Shown here in pieces: positions 218-19,794 of a DNA stretch of 35,452 nt (position 1 is its first letter; the number at the start of each line of letters is the position of its first letter). Source of the stretch: Promethearchaeia archaeon (lineage in GTDB: Archaea; Asgardarchaeota; Lokiarchaeia; Sigyniarchaeales; SOKP01); the NCBI GenBank assembly GCA_029856105.1, contig JAHQWH010000098.1:1-35452 (forward strand), in the 5' to 3' direction. A program made the translations under genes and the position numbers. Below the pieces are notes generated by a model. That model ran no database searches and was not told the DNA's origin. It was given only the letters and a program-made list of their open reading frames with translations.

Positions 218-539
218 TGTTATTCCCAAAAAATTGTAATTTTTGATTAATTTTTAATTAAAATATCATTACTTTAATTTTTATTATAATTTTAAAACTA
301 AATAAAAGTTGCTGTGAGTTATTATAAAATCTTTAAAAATTTTTAACCATAAATTGGTACTCTTTCTAAGATTATCATATATTTACCTTTCTTTTTTAAA
401 AACAAATAGACTTCTATTTTAATTTATTACTTATTTGTAATCCTTTTATCTTATTATATTCAAAGTTAAAAATTACCAAATACTTATTATTTACAAAAAG
501 AAAGACTTTGAATAGTCATCTTTAATCAGAGAAAATAAA

Positions 540-1481
540 ATGATTAATAAAGAAAGATTCGAGGAGTTATTTCAGCAACAACTTATAAAAGATATATCTC
601 AAGAACCAATTGATATTGTTTTATCAGGACAATATGGTAAAGCACTAGAATTACTTAGAGATGCCGAAGCAACGGGATTATTTCCAGCTCTAGTTGGGCC
701 ACCTGGAGTAGGGAAAACAATTTTATGTAGGTATTTTGCTAGTTTAAGAGCTAAAGAAAAAAAAAATCAGAGCTTTTTCTGGCTCACTATGGACGAAAGC
801 ATAAAACCTTCGCATTTTATTGGAAGTTTCGATCCTGCTATTACTCTAAAAAAGGGATTTGTGTTAGAAGCATTTAACCCCGGTCCACTTTTGAGCGCAA
901 TGTTAGAAGGTGGAACTTTTTTAGCTAATGAAATAAATCGAGCTACTGAATACTCGCAAAATACTTTATTAGAACCTTTAGAGGAAGAATCGATTAACAT
1001 ACCGCACTTGGGTCGAATAAAAGCTAGCAAAGATTTCTTCTTTATTTCTGCGATGAATCCGGAAGAGCTTTCGGGCACACATCGTTTATCTGAGGCTTTA
1101 AAGGATAGAATTAAGGTTTGGATTAAACTAACATATCCCGATAAAACGACTGAGCTCGAGATTATAAGAATAAATTTACCGGAACATTTTGTTATCGAAG
1201 AGTCTGAATTAGAATTAATTTATTCAATAATAAACGAAACGAGAAAGAACAAAATAGACATTGAAGTACCAGCGTCAATCCGAGCCGGAATTGCGATGGC
1301 AAAACTATTAGCTCGAAGACGATCTTTAGAAAAAGAAGGAAAAATAAAAGAAAAAACATCTACTAACGAATATCTTTCAGAGATCACTCGTCACGTTCTA
1401 CTAGGAAGTATGAAACCAAAGCCTGGTACAAAAGTTGAAAATATTATTGAAAGTATTATTCATAAAACTTTAGGTGCGTAG
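540..1481 (+). CDS. MoxR-family AAA+ ATPase (CoxD/YehL-like)
   Basis: Walker A GPPGVGKT, degenerate Walker B FLANEINRA, Q.TLLE.LEE, SAMNP, L.EAL.DR arginine finger and a C-terminal lid with S.R; directly upstream of a VWA gene. Confidence 0.9.
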   Translation: MINKERFEELFQQQLIKDISQEPIDIVLSGQYGKALELLRDAEATGLFPALVGPPGVGKTILCRYFASLRAKEKKNQSFFWLTMDESIKPSHFIGSFDPAITLKKGFVLEAFNPGPLLSAMLEGGTFLANEINRATEYSQNTLLEPLEEESINIPHLGRIKASKDFFFISAMNPEELSGTHRLSEALKDRIKVWIKLTYPDKTTELEIIRINLPEHFVIEESELELIYSIINETRKNKIDIEVPASIRAGIAMAKLLARRRSLEKEGKIKEKTSTNEYLSEITRHVLLGSMKPKPGTKVENIIESIIHKTLGA

Positions 1482-1499
1482 GGGGTAAAAAGTTATTTT

Positions 1500-4013
1500 A
1501 TGACAGTCTTTCCAGAAAATCCTTGCGAATTTGCTGTAGATTTCATTAGAAAAATGAGGGCTCATACCGACATTATCCAAATTCCGTCATCACGTCAAGT
1601 TTTATCAATTCCAAAATTAATTTTATCTAGGTATTATCGAAAGGGCTTTGTGACACCTAATGATTACATAGAAATAAGTACCGTAACTTCGTTTCCGGAC
1701 AATCAGGAATTAGCAAAAGATATCGCTTTTAAAATTCTCTTTCCAAATTACAAAAAAGATATTATTGACTCGTTTTTTCAGAGCGAAGATACCGTTGATA
1801 AATCTATTGAAGACCTTGTAGAATCCGAGATGAAGTCTGAATTAGATCAACTTCAAGAGATTATAGACGAAATCGAGGTGACAAAATCAATAGATACAGA
1901 TGAGATTCAAAAATTAGAAGAATTTCTTGAAGAATTAAATTCGAATAGGGAAAAAGAGCCATATAAATCCGCATTAAATTTCTTTAACGACGACTCGGAA
2001 TTGTATAAAGAAGAGATATCTTCCTTAGAAAAACTAATTCAAGAAGCCCAAAAAAGGCTAGAACAAAAAATAAATTCCTTAAGCCCTGATGATTTAAAGG
2101 CTGGTTCGAATTTAGGTTTAGATGACTTAATCCAGCAAAATTCCTTAAGGGAATGGGAAAAACTCGCAAGTAAGGCTCTCAATAATCAAAATATTTCAGA
2201 AGATTTATCAAAATTAATTAATTCAAACAAATTGGATGATCTTTTAAAGTCTATAAAATTTATTAATGAGACTTCGGACAATCAAAACATAAAAGATCAA
2301 ATCCAAAATATTAAAAATCAACTTCAGAACCAAATAAATAATTTAGATCAATTATTTAATGCCGCAAAAACTTTAGGCGAAACTCCTAAGTTTGATCAAG
2401 ACAAAGTTTTGAATAATTCGCTAAACCAATCTTCATTTGAACATAATTTTAACCTTGCAGACTCGCTAGATCAATATTTTGGTACTAATTTAAGAGAAGA
2501 ATTGCTAAATAAATTAAATGGGCAAATGCAAAATCCGCAAAAACAAAAGAAACAAATGAATTTATCGTTAGATATGTTGACAAAAAATGCATTTGCTAAT
2601 AAATCTTGGAACTCGCTATTTAGCCAAGCAATGAAAAATGCGATCGACGAGGCAAATAGTCAAAATATTAAGTTTGAAGCATTTAAATCGCTTTCTCATC
2701 AAATGCAACAATTAATGAATAGTTGCCCAAACATGCACTGTGGACAAAAAATATCTCAGAAGTTACCCGATTTAACCTCTCAAACACTAGAAGCCTGTGA
2801 AACACCTGATCAATTAAGAAACGCAACAGAATTCTTAAGAAAGATCGGATTAAATCCTGAAGCAGAAGATATTAAAAGAATTGGAAAAAAGCTTGAAATG
2901 CCCGAAGAGGAAATATACGAATTAATTGAACCTAATTATCAATTACTTAAAAAAACGATTGAAAAGAAGGTAGCAGATTTTCAGCGAATTAACAATTTAA
3001 TGAATCAAATTAAAGACCAACTAAATAAAGAGAGAATTAGAGAGCTTTTAAGCAGTGCACTAGCTTCCGATAATAGAGATGCTTTAGGTGCAATTGGCCA
3101 TTTTAATTTGAATGAAGCTTTAAAAGGTGCTCAGCAAATCGGGGGCAAAGAAGCGCAAGATAAATTAATTGCTTGTTTATCTGCGGGTACCGGTGAGAAT
3201 CTCCTTAAACAATGGTTTATTCATAGAAATAATCTACCAGAGCAAGTTAAATTAAAGGTTAAGGAATTAGCAAAAAAAATGCTAATTGAGTTAGGAATAT
3301 ATTACTCAAGGGCTCGTTTAGGTAGTGCAACGACTGGGCCTACACCTATTAACATAGTTAGGCCCTACACAATAGGAGACGACTTTGAAAATATAGACTT
3401 GGAGGAAACAATTTTTCATCTTTTGGAAAAGGGTAAAAAATTAGACCACATTAATTACGACGATTTTTTTGTCTATGAGACCACAAAAGGATTACGCTCG
3501 TTATGCTTTGAACTTGATATCAGTGGTTCGATGACAGGAGAAAAACTAGCATACATGGCAATATGTGTGACGATGTTAGTATATGGGATGAGAAAAGACG
3601 AGATTGCTATTGCGTTTTTCGAGTCAGATACGCATGTTTTAAAGGAATTATCTAAAAAAGTAGATTTAGAAAAATTAGCCGACGAGTTGCTCTCTGTTTC
3701 AGCTAAGGGAGGTACGAGGCTTCAAAGCGCCTTAGAATGGGCAAAAAAACAATTTAAAGAAAAGTCAAGCTCCCGTGAAAAGCTGAACGTATTATTTACT
3801 GATGCTGAAATATACGACCTTCAGCAATCTATTGAAACATTAAGAATTTTCCGCTCTTTAGGAATTGATTTTATCTTAGTCTGCCCAGAATCCTCCTTTA
3901 ATTTAAAAGAAGCAAAAAAAATGGTAAAAATCGCAGGAGGACAATTATTAACTATAAAAGATTGGAATGACTTTCCAAAATTAATTTCTGATATTATAAA
4001 ATCGAGATTTTAG
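1500..4013 (+). CDS. VWA-domain protein (CoxE-like C-terminal VWA) with long helical N-terminal region
   Basis: C-terminal MIDAS motif (DISGSM...GGT...FTD) preceded by RPY..GDD...IDLEET, typical of MoxR-partner VWA proteins; starts 18 bp after the MoxR stop. Confidence 0.88.
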   Translation: MTVFPENPCEFAVDFIRKMRAHTDIIQIPSSRQVLSIPKLILSRYYRKGFVTPNDYIEISTVTSFPDNQELAKDIAFKILFPNYKKDIIDSFFQSEDTVDKSIEDLVESEMKSELDQLQEIIDEIEVTKSIDTDEIQKLEEFLEELNSNREKEPYKSALNFFNDDSELYKEEISSLEKLIQEAQKRLEQKINSLSPDDLKAGSNLGLDDLIQQNSLREWEKLASKALNNQNISEDLSKLINSNKLDDLLKSIKFINETSDNQNIKDQIQNIKNQLQNQINNLDQLFNAAKTLGETPKFDQDKVLNNSLNQSSFEHNFNLADSLDQYFGTNLREELLNKLNGQMQNPQKQKKQMNLSLDMLTKNAFANKSWNSLFSQAMKNAIDEANSQNIKFEAFKSLSHQMQQLMNSCPNMHCGQKISQKLPDLTSQTLEACETPDQLRNATEFLRKIGLNPEAEDIKRIGKKLEMPEEEIYELIEPNYQLLKKTIEKKVADFQRINNLMNQIKDQLNKERIRELLSSALASDNRDALGAIGHFNLNEALKGAQQIGGKEAQDKLIACLSAGTGENLLKQWFIHRNNLPEQVKLKVKELAKKMLIELGIYYSRARLGSATTGPTPINIVRPYTIGDDFENIDLEETIFHLLEKGKKLDHINYDDFFVYETTKGLRSLCFELDISGSMTGEKLAYMAICVTMLVYGMRKDEIAIAFFESDTHVLKELSKKVDLEKLADELLSVSAKGGTRLQSALEWAKKQFKEKSSSREKLNVLFTDAEIYDLQQSIETLRIFRSLGIDFILVCPESSFNLKEAKKMVKIAGGQLLTIKDWNDFPKLISDIIKSRF

Positions 4014-4017
4014 AAGA

Positions 4018-6378
4018 ATGACAAAAAATAAATTATCAGAATTAATAATTGAGAAATATGGAATTGAAATATATAAGAAATCAATTGAGTTCCAGAAAAA
4101 TAAAATTAATATAATTTCACTGAAAGAAGATCCAATAAAGATAAGATCAATCATTTTAGATAATGACAGGGAATTCCACCTAGTTATTAACGAGAAAAAA
4201 AATGAAATATTTCACGATTGTCCTACTTTTTTAATACATAGCGAAAGAGATGATAAGATATGTATTCATCTAATAAAACTTTTAACGATAATAAAACCGT
4301 CGATTTCTTTAAAAATTATCAATAATATTGACGATTTCTATTTAACTTCTGAAGACTTTGGTTCTAAAAAGAAAACTAAAAATTATTTGGAATTAGCTAA
4401 TGCTTGTTTTGAATGTAAAAATTGTGTTGATGGACTAAATTATTTAAATAAAGCGATTATTAATCAACACGAGTGCGAATCGATTATTGAAAGATACTTA
4501 AAAACAGCAATTGAAAATAATTTGTATATTGAATTTTTTGAATTTCTGCAATCTGCCTATAATAACGAATTAGGCCCCTATCTTCTCAAATACAATCACT
4601 ACATAGAAAAAGGGATTAAATTATTTCTAAATTCGGTTTCAAAATACACTTTTTATGAAATACTTAGGATTATTGAATCGTTTGATAGATTATTAGATGA
4701 TTATAAATTTCAAAACGAAACTTTTGTTTCGTCTATACTTAAGAAATTGGAAAAAATGGCTAATTCAAACGATTTTAATGAAATGTACTTTTCAACTTTT
4801 TTTATTAAAAAAAATTTCGAAACTCTTGTTAACTATAATCCACTATTCAAAGATTTAATACCTTTGAAGGCTTTTGAATCGTTTAAAAGCGAAATTGTTA
4901 AGTATTTTAAAAGCGAAATTGAGAATTTTTGCGTAATAGATAAACTAAAGCTAATGAAGAGGCATTTTGAAGTTTTTCAGATTCAAAACGATGCGTACTA
5001 TAACGAATATAAGGCTTATAAAAGCGAAATAAAAGAATTAGAAAAGAAAGTATATTTAAAGAAATTTGCCTTTCTCAATCTACTTAAGGAAAAATATAAA
5101 ATCAAAAAATCTAAAGTTGACTTTAGAAAAAAGAGAAACACCTACATCGTTAATCACGATAAAGACAATCTCAAAAACCCCGCTTACAATTACGTTATAA
5201 AACACATAGGTTTTTATGGAATAAACGAATCTACCATTAAATCTTCGGAAATTGGGGTTAACTATTTAATAATTAAAGAATTGTTTTTAGACGATTTAAA
5301 CAACTTCCCAGATATTTTTTATTATAAAAAACAATTCTGGGGAGAAGAAAATAGTTATGAAATTAATTCTATAGATGTCTTTTCGTTAATAAGTAAACCT
5401 ATAGAATACAATTACGACATTGACCAAGATTATTCTAATATTAACGACCTAATGATAATCGAATGGGATTTAGCTAGTAAACCAAGACAAGGTAGCTTAG
5501 TAAATGCATATGGTGCTCAAATTGTAATCCCAGATCAAAACAACTCTCTTTTTCACGACTTAAAACCGTTCGATTTAGTTTACTGTCAAAAAACACCAGT
5601 AAAAATTGAAGGAAATATCGTTAAAAGAATCAATGTAATCGCAAAATGTTCGTTTAAAGACGCAATTAATAGTATTTCGAAGGGGATGGTATTTATTGAA
5701 GGATATTACCCTTTATCTCTTATCAAATCAGTTCTCGAAAAAAAGATTAGTCCCTTTAAAGCTTATGAAATTATATCAAATAACCCAAATAAACAATTTG
5801 TCCCAAACTATCGTCAATTTGTAAAAGCTTTTAGAAAATTATTATTCGATTTTATAAATAAAGAAAGAGAATTTATTTACCAAGAATTAAAATCTAATTC
5901 TGAAGAGAAAACGGATCAAATTTTAATATTATTAAATTTAACGACTGAATTAGCTGGATTAGATTTACCATTTTCTGAAATATTTCAAGAGCTATTATGC
6001 GAAGTAAGTAATTTGGATGAATTTAGAACGAAACTGCTTAATAAAATTCATTCGATCGTAAAAAATGTACTCGTAGTAAGAGAACTTGGAAGTACAAAGA
6101 TTTTCGATCTAAAAAAAATGCGACACACACAATTTGTCAAATATTCTAGCGAAATCTTAAAAATAAGAAAAGAAGAATTCGAAAAATCTAAAATTCTTAA
6201 ATCGTCTGAAAAAAATGTTTTATATAATGTTTCCGAGCTGTTTAAAACCTATTATGGTTACCAGTTCTCGAATATATTGAATTTAGGCGTAAAACTAGAT
6301 ATAGATAAAGATATTTTTAATAAGATAATGTTTTATGCCTCTAAATTAAAGCTAAAATTAAATATAATTGAGGGGTAA
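4018..6378 (+). CDS. Hypothetical protein with N-terminal SWIM-like Zn finger
   Basis: 786-aa ORF starting 4 bp after the VWA stop. FHDCPTF-x9-ICIHLIKLL resembles SWIM (CxC-xn-CxH) with the first Cys replaced by His. Confidence 0.7.
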   Translation: MTKNKLSELIIEKYGIEIYKKSIEFQKNKINIISLKEDPIKIRSIILDNDREFHLVINEKKNEIFHDCPTFLIHSERDDKICIHLIKLLTIIKPSISLKIINNIDDFYLTSEDFGSKKKTKNYLELANACFECKNCVDGLNYLNKAIINQHECESIIERYLKTAIENNLYIEFFEFLQSAYNNELGPYLLKYNHYIEKGIKLFLNSVSKYTFYEILRIIESFDRLLDDYKFQNETFVSSILKKLEKMANSNDFNEMYFSTFFIKKNFETLVNYNPLFKDLIPLKAFESFKSEIVKYFKSEIENFCVIDKLKLMKRHFEVFQIQNDAYYNEYKAYKSEIKELEKKVYLKKFAFLNLLKEKYKIKKSKVDFRKKRNTYIVNHDKDNLKNPAYNYVIKHIGFYGINESTIKSSEIGVNYLIIKELFLDDLNNFPDIFYYKKQFWGEENSYEINSIDVFSLISKPIEYNYDIDQDYSNINDLMIIEWDLASKPRQGSLVNAYGAQIVIPDQNNSLFHDLKPFDLVYCQKTPVKIEGNIVKRINVIAKCSFKDAINSISKGMVFIEGYYPLSLIKSVLEKKISPFKAYEIISNNPNKQFVPNYRQFVKAFRKLLFDFINKEREFIYQELKSNSEEKTDQILILLNLTTELAGLDLPFSEIFQELLCEVSNLDEFRTKLLNKIHSIVKNVLVVRELGSTKIFDLKKMRHTQFVKYSSEILKIRKEEFEKSKILKSSEKNVLYNVSELFKTYYGYQFSNILNLGVKLDIDKDIFNKIMFYASKLKLKLNIIEG

Positions 6379-6610: not shown

Positions 6611-7819
6611 ATGGAATTATCTGAATATGGAAAAAGATTTCTGCGTTTACCACTTCGCATAGACAAACACAATAAAGGATATGTAGATTTTTATATTGGT
6701 CCTAAAAAATTACGTAAAATCGTTAACAATGAGGTTATAACTTCACCAAACAAACTATTAACCGAATGCAAAGCTCTACAAAAAGATTTGTTTAAACAAG
6801 GTTACGATAAAAAACGCGAGCGATACTTAGAAAAATTATTAACGGCGATGAGGGCTTCCATCGAAATCCTAAGCGGTATCGAGATTACTATCAAGGAACA
6901 ATTTTTAAGGCTATATGATGTAGCCTTACAACCAGTTAAAGAATCTGAATTAGATAACTTAAAAGAAGATTTTAACGCAGCGTATGGTGGTCCTGGAAGT
7001 TTAGAAAAACGAATGAACGATTTAAGAATACGGCGAACGATTCCGGAGGGTAAAGTATTTGAATTATTTAAGAAAGCTCTCAATATCACGAGAGAGCGAA
7101 CTAAAGAAGTGTTTGTCGATCTCTTACCTGAAAGTGAGTATATTAATATAGAGTTAGTAAAAAATAACAATAATAATAAAATTAAATGGACTTATTACAA
7201 TTGGTATTTGGGTAATTTTCGCTCCCGAATAGAAGTTAATCCGAATTATAACATGTATTGGACCTTATTTTTGCCCGCTGCCGCTCACGAAGGGTACCCT
7301 GGCCATCATACTGAATTTATAGTCAAAGAACAAACACTATATCGCGAGTTAAATCAATTTGAACACTCAATCTTGCTACTAAACTCGCCCAAGTTAATAA
7401 TTTGCGAAGGAATAGCGACTATCGCAGTTAATATGCTTTTTTCTTATCGAGACCAAGTAGAAATTAGCTTAAGAGAATTTTGTCAAGACTCGTCAAAAGA
7501 ATCTTCTATTGAAGCATTAATAGCGCAAGGCAAAGTAAAAGTAAAATTATCGCTTTTTAGGTATAATTTCGCTTATCGTGCTCTTTTTAACGGGTGGAGT
7601 GAAGAGAAATTAATTCGATACGCGACCAGTTTTGAAATCTTTAGTCAAGAAAATATAAAAAATAGAATAAAATCATTTCTTAATCCCGTACATTCAACTA
7701 CTGATTTCTCGTATAATATAGGAAGAAAACTCATAATAAACAAATATGGGGAATTTCCCTCGGTTAAAGATTTTCGAGACCTGCTTATCAACCCAATTCT
7801 CCCCTCCGATTTAGCATAA
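6611..7819 (+). CDS. DUF885-like putative zinc metallopeptidase
   Basis: AAHEGYPGHH motif, downstream EG.A and Y..G motifs. The likely start is ATG 6611 after a GGGTG SD-like site (the ORF track starts at GTG 6605). No signal peptide is evident. Confidence 0.7.
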   Translation: MELSEYGKRFLRLPLRIDKHNKGYVDFYIGPKKLRKIVNNEVITSPNKLLTECKALQKDLFKQGYDKKRERYLEKLLTAMRASIEILSGIEITIKEQFLRLYDVALQPVKESELDNLKEDFNAAYGGPGSLEKRMNDLRIRRTIPEGKVFELFKKALNITRERTKEVFVDLLPESEYINIELVKNNNNNKIKWTYYNWYLGNFRSRIEVNPNYNMYWTLFLPAAAHEGYPGHHTEFIVKEQTLYRELNQFEHSILLLNSPKLIICEGIATIAVNMLFSYRDQVEISLREFCQDSSKESSIEALIAQGKVKVKLSLFRYNFAYRALFNGWSEEKLIRYATSFEIFSQENIKNRIKSFLNPVHSTTDFSYNIGRKLIINKYGEFPSVKDFRDLLINPILPSDLA

Positions 7820-7881: not shown

Positions 7882-8009
7882 AGGGGTTTAAATAAATTTT
7901 ATCAATTAATATATTGTTTTAAAAGAACTTAACATAAACATTTCATTTCGGTTTCAAATTAAAAAAAAATAGTTAAAAACAATTCACATAACAAATCAAG
8001 TGAGGAAAA

Positions 8010-8039
8010 ATGCCTGGTCAAAAAGATGCAATACCATAA
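8010..8039 (+). CDS. Putative 9-aa micropeptide MPGQKDAIP
   Basis: ATG CCT GGT CAA AAA GAT GCA ATA CCA TAA, preceded by SD-like GTGAGG (8000-8005) and followed by a hairpin; start, stop and frame are preserved in the second copy. Confidence 0.6.
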   Translation: MPGQKDAIP

Positions 8040-8040
8040 A

Positions 8041-8084
8041 ATGATGCTTTTCATAAGCGCATCATATATTTTCCTTTATTTTTT
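8041..8084 (+). terminator. Hairpin plus U-rich tract after micro-ORF 1
   Basis: ATGATGC (8041-8047) pairs with GCATCAT (8059-8065); the inner stem is imperfect; followed by ATATTTTCCTTTATTTTTT. Confidence 0.55.
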
Positions 8085-8220
8085 AAAATGAGTGGTTTAA
8101 AAATATATTCTAATATAATTAAATAGATTTAACAAAATGTAATTCATGCCGTTTCATTTCGGTTTCAAATTTAAAAAAATTAGTTAAAAACAATTCACAT
8201 AACAAACAAAGTGAGAAAAG

Positions 8221-8250
8221 ATGCCTGGTCAAGCAGACGCAATACCATAA
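8221..8250 (+). CDS. Putative 9-aa micropeptide MPGQADAIP
   Basis: ATG CCT GGT CAA GCA GAC GCA ATA CCA TAA, preceded by GTGAGA; differs from copy 1 by K5A and a synonymous GAT/GAC change. Confidence 0.6.
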   Translation: MPGQADAIP

Positions 8251-8252
8251 AA

Positions 8253-8295
8253 TGATGCTTTTCGTAAAAGCATCACATATTTTCTATTCTTTTTT
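8253..8295 (+). terminator. Hairpin plus U-rich tract after micro-ORF 2
   Basis: Perfect 10-bp stem TGATGCTTTT-CGT-AAAAGCATCA (8253-8275) followed by a T-rich tract. Confidence 0.6.
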
Positions 8296-8450
8296 AAAAA
8301 GTTATTACAGCCGTTAGTTAAAGCTTTCCAACTTAACGACTTAAATCAAAAATTTATCTTCCAATATCCAAAAAGAGTTAAAGGATTGCAATATTTTTAA
8401 ATTGAAAATATAACTTTATTAAGTATATAAATTAAAATATCCGTTGAAAA

Positions 8451-9926: not shown

Positions 9927-12900
9927 GTGATTCAAATTTCCTCTGAGGATGAAGGTAGAATAAAGCAAGGCACAATTGCAGGGTTTATGAGGAAGAGAGG
10001 ACAACTTGTAGGCTTCTCAATGGGTTATTATAAACATATGCAATATGTTTCAGAATTTTTAGACAATAGTTTAGATGCTATTGAAGAATTTCAATGGAAT
10101 GAAATAAAAGATAGAGATTCAAAAATCCAATTCTCTCTTGATCAAGAATTATCTTTAGAAAATTTATCCATCCTTCAAGAAGCAAAAAAAGATGAAGTGG
10201 AACGGCCATTAAATAACGCAGCTAAATATGCATTAATGCAGGAAGTTGGTATTGTTCCTACAATATCTTCTGATGCTGAAGTTTTTATAGATGATGATAG
10301 AGATAAAGAAGAAGAATCTGGAGAAATTATCGATAAAGAGGAATTAGAGGTTGAGGAAGAAGTAAAAAGGATAATTGAAGACATGAATGAAATCATCAAA
10401 CCAGTAGAACCAATTATTGATATCGAACCAATTGTAATAATCCGACTCCGCGAATCTGAAGCCGCCACCTTTTTAACTTCTGAGTTATCACAAAAAAATA
10501 TCATGAGTTACACTTTTGAAATGTTTGACAATGGTATTGGAATGACCAAAAGAGATCTAGGTAAGTTTGGAAAATATCTAGCTTCTTCAAAAAGTCTAGA
10601 ATTAAAGCAAACTCGCGGAAGTCAAGGATTTGGCTCTCCAAGTGCGTTCAGTGACGCCCAAAACACGACTGGCAAACCAATTGTTGCAGTTTCAAAGTTT
10701 AAAGACACTATTTATGGTACTGTGTCAGAATTTTTTACAACTTCAAAAAATGAAAAACGATATTTAGTGCGCCCAACGGAGGTTGACAGCCCATTCCTAC
10801 ACGGGACATATATTAAGTTGAATTACTTAAACGTAAAATATGTTAGAGGTTATGTGGATACCTATATAAAAGAAACTGCTTTAATGAATCCGCATGTAAC
10901 TATTATTTTTATTGATCCTTATGGTGAAGAATGGATTTATAGAAGAGTAGTTTCGAATTTTCCTAAACAACCAAAATATGCAAAACCACACCCCTTATCT
11001 ACTAATATTGGTGATTTACAAGATCTATTAATAAAATCAGAAAATCTCACGATTTCAGCTTTTTTACAAGATAATTTTGTAAGAATCAGTTCCAAATTAG
11101 CTAAAGAAATTCTGAAGATTGCAGAAAAGAATTTACAGGATAATTTATCTTTATTAATTCTTAGTAATGGATTTATAAACAAATTAGAGAAAAAAACTGA
11201 TACTATTAAACTCCTTAAATTTGAAAAGAGAATATTTGGGCGCTCTACGAAACCAAGGGATAAGTTAATCATTTACCAAGTTGATTCTGAAGAGTTGAAG
11301 GCTAAATATTGGGAACTTATGAATACATATAACCAATATGATAAAGATTTAGAAAAGATATATAGAGAAATAAAAAAACATAGAGGTCGTATTGATAAAT
11401 CTGAAACGAAAAAAGATATAAAAAAAATCGAAAAAGAGATTAATAACTTATTAAAACAAATAGAGATCAATTCACAAAAAAAAGAAAAAATAAAAAATAG
11501 TTTAAGTACAATTTTCAATACTTCTACAGGGTTAGTAGAAGTTAAAAAATTAAAAAATAGAACCGAATTTGAAGATTTAGTAAAAGAAGTTCAAATTTCA
11601 AAAACTAAACCCTTTGAGTTAACTAATGTGCAATTCAATTCTCTATTTCATGCATTCAAATCAGTCAAATACATGGCGCCCCCAACAGATACAGCTATCC
11701 CTGTAGGTGATGTTATATTAGAAAATACATTAATAAAAGAAATTGGGTTGAAAATATCTGAAAATATTGATGATTTTGATGATCCCATAGATGATATAGA
11801 AGATTCAATTGAATTATTGCGGGAAGAAATAATAAAAGAGAGCGCCAAAAATTATTCCTCCGGAAAGGACGAATCTTTAGAACAAATTGTTGTAAATTCC
11901 GAAGAGGTTAAGGTTTTTAACTCAAAAATATTAACTAGTATTGATATTAAAGATCTCTCTGTCGAACCGGAAAAATTTAGACAAACAATCCAAAAAAATT
12001 TAATATCGTCTGAAGAAGTGCAAAAAGATTCATATCAAGAAATATTTGAATACTTTATTGAAAATTACACCAAGGACGACGATTTTATTTCTGCAGAAAC
12101 TAGAGCTCCAACAAGTGGTAAGGGCTTAGCATATGCTGTTGAAGCCGTTCTGGCTTATTGTAACGATCCTAAAAAACTTGATACACCTAAACGTTCTAGA
12201 GATGTTCTATCAAGATTTATTAATCGAACGCCAAAATTAAGAGATTCTGCGGATTGTGCAATTACGAAAGCCGTTCAATCAGTTAATTGGAAGAATTATA
12301 AGTTAGAAACATATGATAATAATTTACCTAAAGGCCCAATAAAGTTATTAATAAATATTTCGGGCCCCTACGTTCATTTGATGTTTAAGAGCCAGAGCAA
12401 AAATGCTTTGGCTGATGATGACGAACTTATAAAAGAAATTAAATTTTGTCTCGAAGCTATTGGAAGAAGGTTGAGAATTTATCTTAATAGGAAAGCGAAT
12501 ATTCGAAAAATTGAAAGAAGATCTGGTTTAATTGAAAGATACATTCCAATATTCGTCCAAAGCCTTTATAACATCGCTATGCAGGGTGATGGAAAATATA
12601 AAGACAAAATTTCAGAAACGGAATTAGAAAAGTTAATGAAAGAGGCCATTGGTGTAAAAAAAATACCTAGCATTTCTAAAGAGATAGAACCAACGATTAA
12701 AAAGGAAGAAATCGAAAAAGAAAAACAGAAAACAGTCGTTGAATGGGATAAAATAATTGATAAGAAAGAATACATCCCCAAGAAGGCAGAACCAAGAAAA
12801 GAATTTCTTTCAGAAAGAACTCTTAGGAACTGGACTATTAATGAACTCAAAGAATATTGCATAGAAAATGATATCTTAATAGCCAAATCTTCAACGGTGC

Positions 12901-13340
12901 GAAAATCAGAAATTATTAAAATAATTCAAGAATTTTATACAAAAGAAAAGCCAGAAGTAATATCGCCTCCAGTAAAGGAAAGAAAAGAACCCATAAAACT
13001 CAAACCCGTCATTCCAAGCGTTGTAACAGAAAAAACAAAACAATTGCGGTTAGTCGGGGGTGAAGTAAAGGCTCAACCTATCGTTATAAAGAAACCCACT
13101 GTTCGTGCTCCAGAGCCTAAACCAGAACCTACTCAAACCGAATTACCGATAATTACAACAGAGAAAATACTAGACGCTTTATCTGATGAATGGCAACCGA
13201 TTACTTCTTTAATTTTTAAAATGAAAATAAAAGAAATGATGGATGCACGCTTCTTACAAATAAAATTAAAGGAATTAGAGCGCAAAAATAGTATTGTTGT
13301 CGCTACTATAAAAAATAAAAAAAATTGGAAGTTAAAATGA
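9927..13340 (+). CDS. top6B: DNA topoisomerase VI subunit B, greatly expanded
   Basis: GHKL motifs EFLDNSLDA, DNGIG, FGKYLASSK, QTRGSQGFG and HGT; NPH; KPHP; RFINRTP.L; F.SQSK.A transducer lysine loop; immediately upstream of top6A. Confidence 0.93.
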   Translation: MIQISSEDEGRIKQGTIAGFMRKRGQLVGFSMGYYKHMQYVSEFLDNSLDAIEEFQWNEIKDRDSKIQFSLDQELSLENLSILQEAKKDEVERPLNNAAKYALMQEVGIVPTISSDAEVFIDDDRDKEEESGEIIDKEELEVEEEVKRIIEDMNEIIKPVEPIIDIEPIVIIRLRESEAATFLTSELSQKNIMSYTFEMFDNGIGMTKRDLGKFGKYLASSKSLELKQTRGSQGFGSPSAFSDAQNTTGKPIVAVSKFKDTIYGTVSEFFTTSKNEKRYLVRPTEVDSPFLHGTYIKLNYLNVKYVRGYVDTYIKETALMNPHVTIIFIDPYGEEWIYRRVVSNFPKQPKYAKPHPLSTNIGDLQDLLIKSENLTISAFLQDNFVRISSKLAKEILKIAEKNLQDNLSLLILSNGFINKLEKKTDTIKLLKFEKRIFGRSTKPRDKLIIYQVDSEELKAKYWELMNTYNQYDKDLEKIYREIKKHRGRIDKSETKKDIKKIEKEINNLLKQIEINSQKKEKIKNSLSTIFNTSTGLVEVKKLKNRTEFEDLVKEVQISKTKPFELTNVQFNSLFHAFKSVKYMAPPTDTAIPVGDVILENTLIKEIGLKISENIDDFDDPIDDIEDSIELLREEIIKESAKNYSSGKDESLEQIVVNSEEVKVFNSKILTSIDIKDLSVEPEKFRQTIQKNLISSEEVQKDSYQEIFEYFIENYTKDDDFISAETRAPTSGKGLAYAVEAVLAYCNDPKKLDTPKRSRDVLSRFINRTPKLRDSADCAITKAVQSVNWKNYKLETYDNNLPKGPIKLLINISGPYVHLMFKSQSKNALADDDELIKEIKFCLEAIGRRLRIYLNRKANIRKIERRSGLIERYIPIFVQSLYNIAMQGDGKYKDKISETELEKLMKEAIGVKKIPSISKEIEPTIKKEEIEKEKQKTVVEWDKIIDKKEYIPKKAEPRKEFLSERTLRNWTINELKEYCIENDILIAKSSTVRKSEIIKIIQEFYTKEKPEVISPPVKERKEPIKLKPVIPSVVTEKTKQLRLVGGEVKAQPIVIKKPTVRAPEPKPEPTQTELPIITTEKILDALSDEWQPITSLIFKMKIKEMMDARFLQIKLKELERKNSIVVATIKNKKNWKLK

Positions 13341-16446: not shown

Positions 16447-19400
16447 ATGCTTACAGAACTTATCCTTATTCTCATTTTTATAATTTTTTTCATTATTGGG
16501 TTCATAATAATTTACAAACAAGTTAGTTTAGTTAAAAAAGGGGAGTTTAACAACAAGGATCGCCTTCAGTGCTTAATTTACGGATTTGTCTTTAGCATGG
16601 GAGTTATGGTCGTAATCGCGATGGCTTTTATATTTGCCATAAATACTCCTGAGTTTTGGCAAGGAAGTGTATTAACACCTCCAGATATTAGCCCTCTTTC
16701 TTTACTTATCCCATTTACGTTTTGTTTGATGTATATTTCTTTATACCCTCTTATAGATTTCTTATTTATTGCTTTAAGTTCAGAATCTGACGAGGGGCTT
16801 ACTCCATTTCATAAATTTATTGGGAAAAAAATTATTCATTTATCTAAAAGCAAGATTATTTCTGTAATTATGGCAATTCTTCTTTATTTGCTATTTATTA
16901 TCCCTCCAATGTTACTTTCTCTTGCGGGGTTACCTTTTTTAGTAATCTGGGTTTCTTGGTTGCTTGCTTACCCCCTTATGATTTTATCATTTTATGGCTC
17001 AAAAGGTTATGTAGCTGGGATAACAAACGAGTTTGTTCATATCCCTGAAATTAAACGCTCTTCGTTTTTAAATTTTGAAGATAGCAAAAGAGGTATGAAA
17101 CAATTTATATCAAATCCTAAATCGTATATACTATTCGGTTTAATGTTGTTCGTTTTTGTGTGGGCTTGGATTTCTATGTTTCAAACGATAATATTCTTTT
17201 TTTCTGGATCACTAGCAATTTCTACGATGACCTCGTATTTTGTGTTTGTTACTCTATTGTTTGGCATAATAGGATACTTTACTCGATTTTGGGGTAGAAA
17301 AATTAAATATAGAGGAATTGATATTTATTTTGCAGCGTATTTAATGGCCGCAATTGGTCTAAATGTTTTAGTAAATTTTTTAATAGTGAATATCGACAAA
17401 TTATCGGTGACTTTAAATTATTCGATTCTCACGCAAGATATTATTCCAAATTTTACTAAGTTTGCTTGGGCGGCAGTAATCGAAGAAATTTGCATGATCA
17501 CATTTACATCTTATTACTTCTTATCAAAAAAAAATGAGTTTACTAAAAATCTTAAATACTCAAAAATTACGGAGTATGGTCAAACTTTTGATCCTATCCC
17601 ACTATTTAATTTTATCAAACATTCTGATCCTATACTAAGAAAACACGCAGAAAACACGCTCTTGATGATGTTTGAAAGAATTCCTTTGAAGTCAGAAATC
17701 TCCTTAAACGATTGGAAATTTAAAAATTCTTTATTAGACGGTTTATGCGACTCAAATTCGAATTCAAGAAAGATCTCATTCGAAATTTTGACTAAATTAG
17801 AGAAGGAAATTCCAAATATGATATTACCTTGGATTATTGAATCTTTGGAATCTCCAAATTACGACAAAAGTATTCTTATTGCAAAATCCTTACTAAATGC
17901 TGATTTTGCTTTAATTAAACAAATTCCTATAAATGTTATATATAACTTAGTAAATGATTCAGAGTGGAGATTAAAGTTATTGGGATTAAAAATCTTGATA
18001 AGAATTGCTCAAAAAGAAAAAGAAGTAGTACGAAATTTTGATTTGATGAAATTATTAAACGATCCAAACAGCGCTATTCAAGTGGAACTTCTTAACTTTT
18101 TAGCAGAATCTTCACTTAATATTCCTATTGAAACATTTTTAGATAAATTAAATCATACCAATAAAGAAATTAGAGCCGCAGCCATTAAAAATATAAAGAA
18201 TATTGACATTGAAAAGATTGACTCCGAAATTATTAATAAAATAATTCCCTTTATGAGAGACCCTACAAGCTCTGTTAGAGCATCTATATTTGAAGTTATT
18301 TCTAAAATGGGGAATTTCAAAAAATTTAATATTCCTATTTCGACCATTTTTGAAGGTTTAGTCGATTCAGATATAAATGTTAGGAATGCATCTGTTTCAG
18401 CTCTTGCAAAGTATTATAGTGAAGAGCCTGATTCCATTGATATAGATAAGATTATCAGTAAAATCGATTCTGAAAATCTAAAATCTTTGAACAGCGTGTT
18501 AACTCTCCTTGGTAAACTTTGGGGCAAAAATCCAGAAAAAATCTTAACGACTTTCTTGATTTTTATAAAATTTGATGATTTTGAATTAAAAGAAAGAATC
18601 TCAGATATTATCGTTGAGAATTATGAAAAAAACCCAACTTTAGTTTTAGATAGGTTAATAAGAACTAAGGACGAATCAAAATTTATTTCAAAAGGCGTAA
18701 TTTCTAGAACAATAACAAAAATTGCTAAACAATTTCCTAAGGAAATAATACCAAGATTAATTAATCATTTAGGTTCCGATGATAAAGATATAAAATTAAA
18801 TGTCATTGCTTCTTTGGATGGTTTAATAGAAGATTATATGGATAGAATCGATATTAAATCAATAATATCCTTAATTCGAAGTGAAAACGATAAAAAAATT
18901 AAGAAAGAAGCATCCCAACTAATTTTAAAAATTTCAAAAATTAAACCTTTAGCATTACAACCTGTAATGACTGATTTATTGCAGACCATAATAGAACAGG
19001 AAGTATCAATAAGAATAATTTTAACTAAATCAATGTTAGAAATATCAAAACAATTACCAGATCTTATTCCTGTGCGCCTTACTATAAATCTTCTTTCAGA
19101 TGAAGATTCTTTTATAAGGGAAACAAGCGTGAAAATATTAGGATACATTGGTCAGAAACTCTCTTTCGCTACTGCTGATGCTTTGATAAATAAAGCGTTA
19201 GTTGACAAAGAGTGGATAGTTAGGGATGCCGCTGTATCAAGTTTGGGAAAAATTTTTAAAGCTGTCGATAACAAGGAGACTATTATTGAAAAACTTGTTT
19301 CTTTATTAGACGACGATAAAAGTTGGGTTCGTCGTTCTTCCATGAATGTTCTTTCATCAGTAGAAGGAATTACAGAAACTCAAATCCCCTTTGAAAAAGT

Positions 19401-19794
19401 TTCAGAGAATTTATTAAATAAAGACTCCAAGGTTAGAGAGGGAGCAGCTAATTTATTAAAAATATACAGCTTTGAAAATATTGATAGAATCTTTAGTAGC
19501 GTAATTTCATTATTAGGTGATGAAAGCGGGGATGTAAGAAACACTACTGTAGATGTTATGGTTAAAATCATACAAGAAATTGGTATTTCTAAAGTACTTT
19601 CTAAATTATTGAGAAGTTTAAGCGATGAATATTCAATCCAAACCCAACAATCGATCGCAATAATACTAGGCCGCACTGTTAGATATGAAGATGAAAAAAT
19701 AAAAAAAAGAGTAATATCGCTATTAAAAATTCGATGTGAGATGTCGCAAGACCCCATAATATGCGAAATGCTAACAAAATTGAGAGAAAGTTAA
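16447..19794 (+). CDS. Multi-pass membrane protein fused to a long HEAT-repeat solenoid
   Basis: About 8-9 hydrophobic segments in aa 1-360, then about 750 aa of repeated LL.D....VR..A...L HEAT motifs. Confidence 0.85.
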   Translation: MLTELILILIFIIFFIIGFIIIYKQVSLVKKGEFNNKDRLQCLIYGFVFSMGVMVVIAMAFIFAINTPEFWQGSVLTPPDISPLSLLIPFTFCLMYISLYPLIDFLFIALSSESDEGLTPFHKFIGKKIIHLSKSKIISVIMAILLYLLFIIPPMLLSLAGLPFLVIWVSWLLAYPLMILSFYGSKGYVAGITNEFVHIPEIKRSSFLNFEDSKRGMKQFISNPKSYILFGLMLFVFVWAWISMFQTIIFFFSGSLAISTMTSYFVFVTLLFGIIGYFTRFWGRKIKYRGIDIYFAAYLMAAIGLNVLVNFLIVNIDKLSVTLNYSILTQDIIPNFTKFAWAAVIEEICMITFTSYYFLSKKNEFTKNLKYSKITEYGQTFDPIPLFNFIKHSDPILRKHAENTLLMMFERIPLKSEISLNDWKFKNSLLDGLCDSNSNSRKISFEILTKLEKEIPNMILPWIIESLESPNYDKSILIAKSLLNADFALIKQIPINVIYNLVNDSEWRLKLLGLKILIRIAQKEKEVVRNFDLMKLLNDPNSAIQVELLNFLAESSLNIPIETFLDKLNHTNKEIRAAAIKNIKNIDIEKIDSEIINKIIPFMRDPTSSVRASIFEVISKMGNFKKFNIPISTIFEGLVDSDINVRNASVSALAKYYSEEPDSIDIDKIISKIDSENLKSLNSVLTLLGKLWGKNPEKILTTFLIFIKFDDFELKERISDIIVENYEKNPTLVLDRLIRTKDESKFISKGVISRTITKIAKQFPKEIIPRLINHLGSDDKDIKLNVIASLDGLIEDYMDRIDIKSIISLIRSENDKKIKKEASQLILKISKIKPLALQPVMTDLLQTIIEQEVSIRIILTKSMLEISKQLPDLIPVRLTINLLSDEDSFIRETSVKILGYIGQKLSFATADALINKALVDKEWIVRDAAVSSLGKIFKAVDNKETIIEKLVSLLDDDKSWVRRSSMNVLSSVEGITETQIPFEKVSENLLNKDSKVREGAANLLKIYSFENIDRIFSSVISLLGDESGDVRNTTVDVMVKIIQEIGISKVLSKLLRSLSDEYSIQTQQSIAIILGRTVRYEDEKIKKRVISLLKIRCEMSQDPIICEMLTKLRES

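Follow-up and report, generated by a model that had tools for sequence, protein, structure and literature searches.

Nine-codon peptide genes in a Lokiarchaeial genome and their candidate partners, a zinc peptidase and a giant Lrp-like protein

Our results suggest that Lokiarchaeia carry a family of peptide genes of about nine codons, which are, to judge from their sequence conservation, very likely translated, and which are very probably coupled in function to a DUF885-like zinc metallopeptidase encoded beside many of them. The window, the whole stretch of 35,452 nucleotides that was analysed (contig C98 of a 3.66-Mb assembly with 32% GC), holds two of these genes in tandem. Database labels on close homologues of its genes read Promethearchaeota or Lokiarchaeota. 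The new elements are one peptide family behind two pairings, with the peptidase and with a 1,200-residue protein and an MFS transporter, both of which are found in one genome; a clade of convergently arranged peptidases; a pattern of selection; a contrast in terminal Pro; and a correction of the promoter. The initial annotation knew of no such system in Asgard archaea, and our literature search, with subscription papers mostly outside its scope, likewise found no paper on Asgard peptide signalling or small-peptide gene families.

Cassettes of the window and their family

Much of what had been described in the window was recovered on re-measurement (Table 1): two ungapped 148-nt direct repeats with a spacing of 211 nt and 16 mismatches; an ORF pair that differs at codon 5, where two base changes turn Lys into Ala, and at codon 6 by a single synonymous change; an SD-like GTGAG at 8000 and 8211 that matches the 3' end of the 16S rRNA of the same genome; hairpins after the stop codons that stand out against shuffled sequences and are followed by U-rich tracts; and a greater divergence upstream of the repeats, where 26 of 63 nt are identical. 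A decayed third cassette has lost its ATG and open frame, and no peptidase adjoins it.

Table 1. Coordinates of the cassettes and of the adjoining peptidase gene in the window
Feature	Position	Strand	Details
Decayed third cassette	314..401	+	SD, final Pro codon, stop, hairpin and U-tract retained
Peptidase partner gene	6611..7819	+	402 aa, soluble, DUF885-like zinc metallopeptidase; His226, Glu227, His232, Glu266
Likely TATA box, cassette 1	7886..7894	+	ATG 124 nt downstream; placed from the motif
148-nt repeat, copy 1	7941..8088	+	Holds part of the 5' UTR, SD, ORF, hairpin and U-tract
Shine-Dalgarno site, copy 1	8000..8005	+	From the sequence and the 16S 3' end
Peptide gene 1, 9 codons	8010..8039	+	M-P-G-x5-P-stop, position 5 = Lys
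Hairpin (8041-8065) and U-rich terminator-like tract, copy 1	8041..8084	+	z -3.6
Likely TATA box, cassette 2	8095..8103	+	One-base variant; ATG 126 nt downstream; placed from the motif
148-nt repeat, copy 2	8152..8299	+	From comparison of the copies
Peptide gene 2, 9 codons	8221..8250	+	M-P-G-x5-P-stop, position 5 = Ala
Hairpin (8253-8275) and U-rich tract, copy 2	8253..8295	+	z -5.3

The promoter had to be moved. A TATA-like box 38 nt before the ATG, previously taken as the promoter, does exist, but a comparison of 95 homologous cassettes shows it in no more than 28, which form one subgroup. A canonical TTTAAATA box is found in 56 of the 95, mostly 100-130 nt before the ATG (mean of 1.1 and maximum of 5 in shuffles), and lies upstream of both cassettes of the window, exact in the first and with one base changed in the second. 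These positions imply that the functional, duplicated unit probably spans all 211 nt and includes a 5' UTR of some 90 nt, and the transcript, earlier put at about 90 nt, becomes one of probably about 170 nt. The promoters of the cassettes gave no sign of a common operator. The description of the cassettes as self-contained micro-genes thus holds for the promoter-like box, SD, terminator and coding constraint that each has of its own, but they are tightly linked to the gene of the upstream zinc peptidase, and their family to those of the MFS transporter and the 1,200-residue protein.

Elsewhere in the window, an operon-like block upstream of the peptidase (540-6378) encodes a MoxR-like AAA ATPase, a VWA protein and a 786-aa protein that has no convincing Pfam match. 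A Topoisomerase VI B-like ORF of 1,137 aa (9927-13340), about twice the usual length, has its transducer domain alone detected by Pfam (717-863), and a HEAT-repeat protein of 1,115 aa is encoded at 16447-19794.

Pattern searches placed the two ORFs in a family of the form M-P-G-x5-P-stop, of which this genome has ten intact copies and its relatives have well over 100. Eight ORFs of this genome match the strict pattern, compared with 0-1 in shuffles, and other lengths show no such peak; two variants have a different second or third residue. Of the 24 further genomes in the genus, 8 contain the strict pattern, one of them as many as 18 times, and the reversed control gives 0-1 per genome. (With a looser pattern of an SD plus an ORF, true matches are swamped by chance ones.) Pro (24%) and Gly (19%) are abundant and aromatic or Leu residues few, a composition that the pattern itself favours but with which a set collected blind to the end of the ORF agrees. 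This end-blind set comprises every ATG-Pro-Gly start up to 1.2 kb behind a partner gene, without any condition on the end and leaving out two starts inside long genes. Its 61 starts lead to nine residues in 58 cases, to ten in three and to fewer in none. The 55 distinct nine-codon sequences, encoding 50 peptides, all end in Pro-TAA and use all four Pro codons between them; column shuffles of these sequences are expected to yield 4.9 internal stops.

The interior of the peptides behaves very differently from their ends. In 16 disjoint close pairs, pN/pS was 0.313/0.310 for codons 4-8, against 0.080/0.271 in the adjacent enzyme. Fixed ends and length in spite of synonymous variation, together with a pN/pS near 1, indicate selection on length and ends with a free middle. 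The suggestion of coding selection is thus borne out for the length, the final Pro and the stop, but not for the five middle codons, and the idea of a single variable position 5 fails, because hypervariability extends to all five middle residues in the family as a whole. Extensions of one residue after the Pro look partly like stop-codon slips, and sequence comparison gives no proven follower. Viral contigs hold ten pattern matches, none with a partner gene, and all three of the matches listed lie outside cassette context.

Several individual copies deserve mention. Two cassettes of one genome (G000 C158:12055, or L032:6056, and C213:5306, or L034:5306) have identical ORFs and 95 identical nt upstream; the former looks like a duplicate of the MFS-linked latter, and an MFS fragment lies at the matching site in G017. 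A 455-aa gene beside the C158 copy was ruled out as a partner, being present in other genera without the peptide. Alternative starts are apparent, ATT for some peptide genes and GTG or TTG for others (L325:1220 in G020, L486, L487). One copy (L013:1053, G004 C174), which has no peptidase near it, is interrupted at codon 6 by an in-frame TGA and is probably a pseudogene. Finally, a fragment of the 3' end of a peptidase gene is duplicated together with its cassette (L252 and L065, G017 C70), which suggests growth by unequal recombination.

The adjoining peptidase

The gene preceding the two cassettes encodes an enzyme whose AF2 model (pLDDT 91.6) is closest to the DUF885 structure 3iuk (Z 20.8, rmsd 4.5, 357 aligned), then to M32 carboxypeptidases (Z ~13), oligopeptidase F, ACE, Dcp and MATCAP, and which matches atlas clusters named DUF885 with a TM of 0.88. 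The Pfam DUF885 family (PF05960) scores 17.3 bits, below its curated cut-off of 32.4. An alignment of 103 homologues shows no variation at His226, Glu227, His232, His233 and Glu266. The protein shares the fold (Z 20.8 to 11) and the HExxxxH plus Glu zinc site of DUF885 proteins (3iuk, 3u24, 3o0y) and M32, M3 and M2 peptidases. It differs from DUF885 proteins in length, about 400 aa against 550, and its bacterial relatives lack peptide genes. No hydrophobic segment was found in it, PDB sequence searches with the peptidase, the MFS transporter and the 1,200-residue protein returned nothing useful, and we found no DUF885-like protein with a measured activity. The peptidase occurs in 37 of the 134 genomes of the taxonomic family, confined to two genera; a search of 26 further genomes from the class did not find it. 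This genome has four copies, with peptide genes behind each.

Peptide genes lie beside 62 of the 80 assessable Lokiarchaeial peptidases, 49 in tandem and 13 in convergent orientation. The convergent 13 are more distant (35-41% identity) and form one clade; their peptide genes, 9-11 codons long, lie on the opposite strand. Since the linkage holds down to 35% identity, it does not reflect one copied block, and its preservation through an inversion argues for function rather than hitch-hiking. The remaining 18 peptidases stand alone, mostly in a separate clade of a tree whose deep branches are weakly supported. Around bacterial homologues (24-33% identity), the lengths of nearby short ORFs are spread evenly and a terminal Pro is seen in 7 of 96, which gives no sign of pairing. 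A final Pro is found in 80 of 90 peptidase-linked peptides against 22 of 52 beside the 1,200-aa gene, in related genomes whose members are not independent. Distances between peptide cores and between enzymes on the tree are hardly correlated (Mantel r 0.08, p 0.08), so cognate co-evolution was not detected. The downstream gene in the window, coaBC, was ruled out as the partner, because this neighbour differs between loci. Canonical long DUF885 genes in two genomes (G015, G053) have no peptide gene, and a record labelled Candidatus Hodarchaeota (L083) contains a solo peptidase that falls in with the solo clade of Lokiarchaeia, down to an identical downstream neighbour.

The MFS transporter and the 1,200-residue protein

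Cassettes without a peptidase led us to a second type of locus. There, a peptide gene lies 227-357 nt upstream of all 13 close orthologues of an MFS gene, and a gene of about 1,200 codons adjoins these MFS/peptide loci in several unrelated neighbourhoods. The latter is present in 118 of the 134 genomes of the taxonomic family and in none of 265 others of the phylum, with one copy in this genome; in G000 it lies at C213:5600-9199. It is often head to head with a peptide gene while its surroundings vary, and in many peptidase-free genomes peptide genes of 8-12 codons, mostly starting with Met-Pro, diverge from it or flank it. The most distant paralogues have no peptide gene by the same rules. 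Upstream of one of these (L497, G001 C111), two tandem Tyr-rich ORFs of seven codons with an SD are possibly another peptide class.

The 1,200-residue protein has no sequence match in Pfam, NCBIfam or PDB, and neither an invariant His nor a nucleotide-, SAM- or metal-binding family was detected in it. Its model (pLDDT 89, pTM 0.90) starts with a zincin-like domain of middling similarity to SPRTN (Z 7.4) and jannalysin (Z 6.5), in which two His ligands are replaced, and continues with four helix-plus-ferredoxin units that match Lrp/AsnC proteins. Residues 204-370, a winged helix with a RAM-like unit, align with full-length Lrp/AsnC proteins at Z ~7 (atlas lead, 0.81). Among single structures, NirDL matches best (Z 11.9, rmsd 4.9, 291 aligned). 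The protein shares tandem winged-helix and ferredoxin-like units with NirDL/AhbAB and Lrp/AsnC, but differs in having four of them fused behind a zinc-less zincin-like domain. NirDL-type proteins and AhbA/B are enzymes although they are annotated as Lrp regulators (PMC3942049), so that the 1,200-residue protein may be either a receptor or an enzyme.

No identical peptide is shared by the peptidase-linked and the 1,200-aa-linked sets, and this genome has about nine different peptides for its one 1,200-residue protein. One genome (G112, a single contig, 90% complete) has a peptidase with its peptide, and in it the 1,200-aa gene and the MFS gene were not found, nor was the whole neighbourhood of the former.

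Possible roles of the peptides

Signalling and modified-peptide roles, both raised in the initial annotation, remain the leading readings. Tentatively, we see in the products leaderless peptides of the signal type that the peptidase may recognise by their C-terminal Pro and trim or turn over. Each 211-nt unit would give a leaderless nine-residue peptide, probably an octapeptide starting with Pro-Gly after removal of Met. The peptidase, presumably cytoplasmic, would bind it by its length and its C-terminal Pro, irrespective of the residues in the middle, and, if it acts like its fold relatives (M32 carboxypeptidases, ACE and Dcp), would cut near the C-terminal end, thereby maturing the peptide or clearing it. 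We lean slightly towards the peptides being substrates of this enzyme rather than its inhibitors. The core circuit would consist of one peptide gene and the Lrp/AsnC-like 1,200-residue protein, often with the MFS transporter; this protein, with its zinc-less peptidase domain, would be the peptide sensor. The peptidase appears dispensable for this circuit, because many near-complete genomes lack it. The cassettes of the window would be an accessory in which one to three additional, diversified peptides go with a peptidase, and which has multiplied in two genera and may widen or tune the pool of signals.

In its widest form, this reading would give Lokiarchaeia a peptide communication of a non-RRNPP kind, with leaderless peptides of 8-11 residues, an MFS transporter, a giant receptor in which a dead peptidase domain is joined to four Lrp units, and, in certain lineages, multiplying peptidase-peptide cassettes by which a shifting set of signals is produced or jammed. 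Signalling through the 1,200-residue protein comes close to an even chance. A neutral core and some nine peptides per single 1,200-residue protein are a poor fit to a specific receptor, and because of these two observations, the lack of shared peptides and the gene content of G112, we regard the communication system as a whole as possible rather than probable.

Known leaderless signals offer the nearest comparison. SIP/RopB of Streptococcus pyogenes relies on leaderless communication peptides of 8-10 aa (PMC10518010), and the endopeptidase PepO controls such a signal (PMC9603395). The present genes resemble this system in their 8-10 aa peptides, ultrasmall ORFs with an SD, absence of a signal or leader, variable code and position beside a putative cytoplasmic regulator; by analogy with PepO, which can lower the signal, a maturing or clearing role of the peptidase is favoured. 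They differ in the putative receptor, a 1,200-aa Lrp/AsnC-like fusion instead of an HTH-TPR RRNPP protein, in peptides that are Pro/Gly-rich and polar instead of hydrophobic, and in their many copies per genome, dedicated peptidase and MFS transporter, and archaeal host. The partners gave no RRNPP Pfam hit, and no TPR/RRNPP fold appeared in the fold lists, for which the 1,200-residue protein was searched as a whole chain.

A serious but unlikely alternative is a RiPP library, in which the peptides would be hypervariable precursors, the 1,200-residue protein a promiscuous modifying enzyme, the MFS transporter an exporter, and the peptidase a means to mature or cyclise the product or to protect the producer. 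A single 1,200-aa gene with many scattered or tandem precursors per genome, conserved ends around a variable core with a pN/pS near 1, and the enzymatic nature of NirDL and of the Lrp-annotated AhbA/B (PMC3942049) all fit it. Prochlorosins similarly pair one promiscuous enzyme with many dispersed precursors (PMC10783134), and share with our genes the hypervariable, isolated or tandem precursors and one large protein per genome, but have a Nif11 leader and a lanthipeptide synthetase, which are lacking here, where precursors have nine residues. Most of the peptides have neither leader nor follower, the 1,200-residue protein lacks the detectable binding families and invariant His noted above, and many near-complete genomes hold it with a peptide and without such a peptidase. 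Neither Pfam nor NCBIfam recognises a known RiPP modifying enzyme in the clusters, the likeness to NirDL being one of fold only. A metallopeptidase that cyclised the peptide head to tail, starting from a free C-terminus, would moreover lack an energy source. Microcin C (mccA/MccB), among the shortest genes known, has a dedicated enzyme beside an MFS pump and a peptidase. The Lokiarchaeial genes are similarly short and accompanied, but have no ThiF adenylyltransferase and no terminal Asn, and their precursors are hypervariable and multi-copy.

It is improbable, in our view, that cytoplasmic peptides hold the adjacent peptidase off until they decay, the family having been borrowed from the signalling locus. 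Such an enzyme-inhibitor pair would explain why an X-Pro end is fixed in peptidase-linked peptides, since Pro-ended peptides inhibit ACE and the fold of the peptidase is akin to ACE and M32. Separate promoters and terminators would permit an excess of peptide over enzyme, and G112 has the pair with no 1,200-aa gene found. It would, however, be odd for a tight inhibitor to have a free core and for one enzyme to have one to three different peptides, and both the 18 solo peptidases and the orphan cassettes without enzyme speak against it.

The cassettes could also act in cis, as leader peptides or small RNAs, if pausing at Pro-stop or RNA structure controlled the gene that follows, coaBC in the window. 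Termination is slowed when Pro precedes the stop, a hairpin and U-tract follow the ORF, and at one locus cassettes lie upstream of the MFS gene. We find this very improbable, because downstream genes vary between loci, many cassettes face the end of the partner gene, many peptides of the family have no Pro end, the constraint is at the codon level, and an Rfam search of the cassettes returned no match (best E 1.9, all far under gathering scores). A selfish or accidental repeat with a functionless peptide, suggested by decayed or partial copies (the third cassette of the window and a premature stop in one orphan copy), is hardly tenable, being largely refuted by the coding constraint, with length and ends fixed in spite of synonymous variation while flanks take indels, and by the peptidase linkage, and further opposed by links to three partner genes across genera and by the absence of transposase or viral association.

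The Lokiarchaeial system differs from RRNPP/LCP in its putative receptor fold and in its peptide chemistry, and it appears to fit no RiPP class examined. Genes of nine codons are below the size reach of annotation pipelines. If our reading is true, the peptides would be the first substrate class for a DUF885-like enzyme, and the lineage closest to eukaryotes would have peptide communication or peptide chemistry with a novel receptor architecture.
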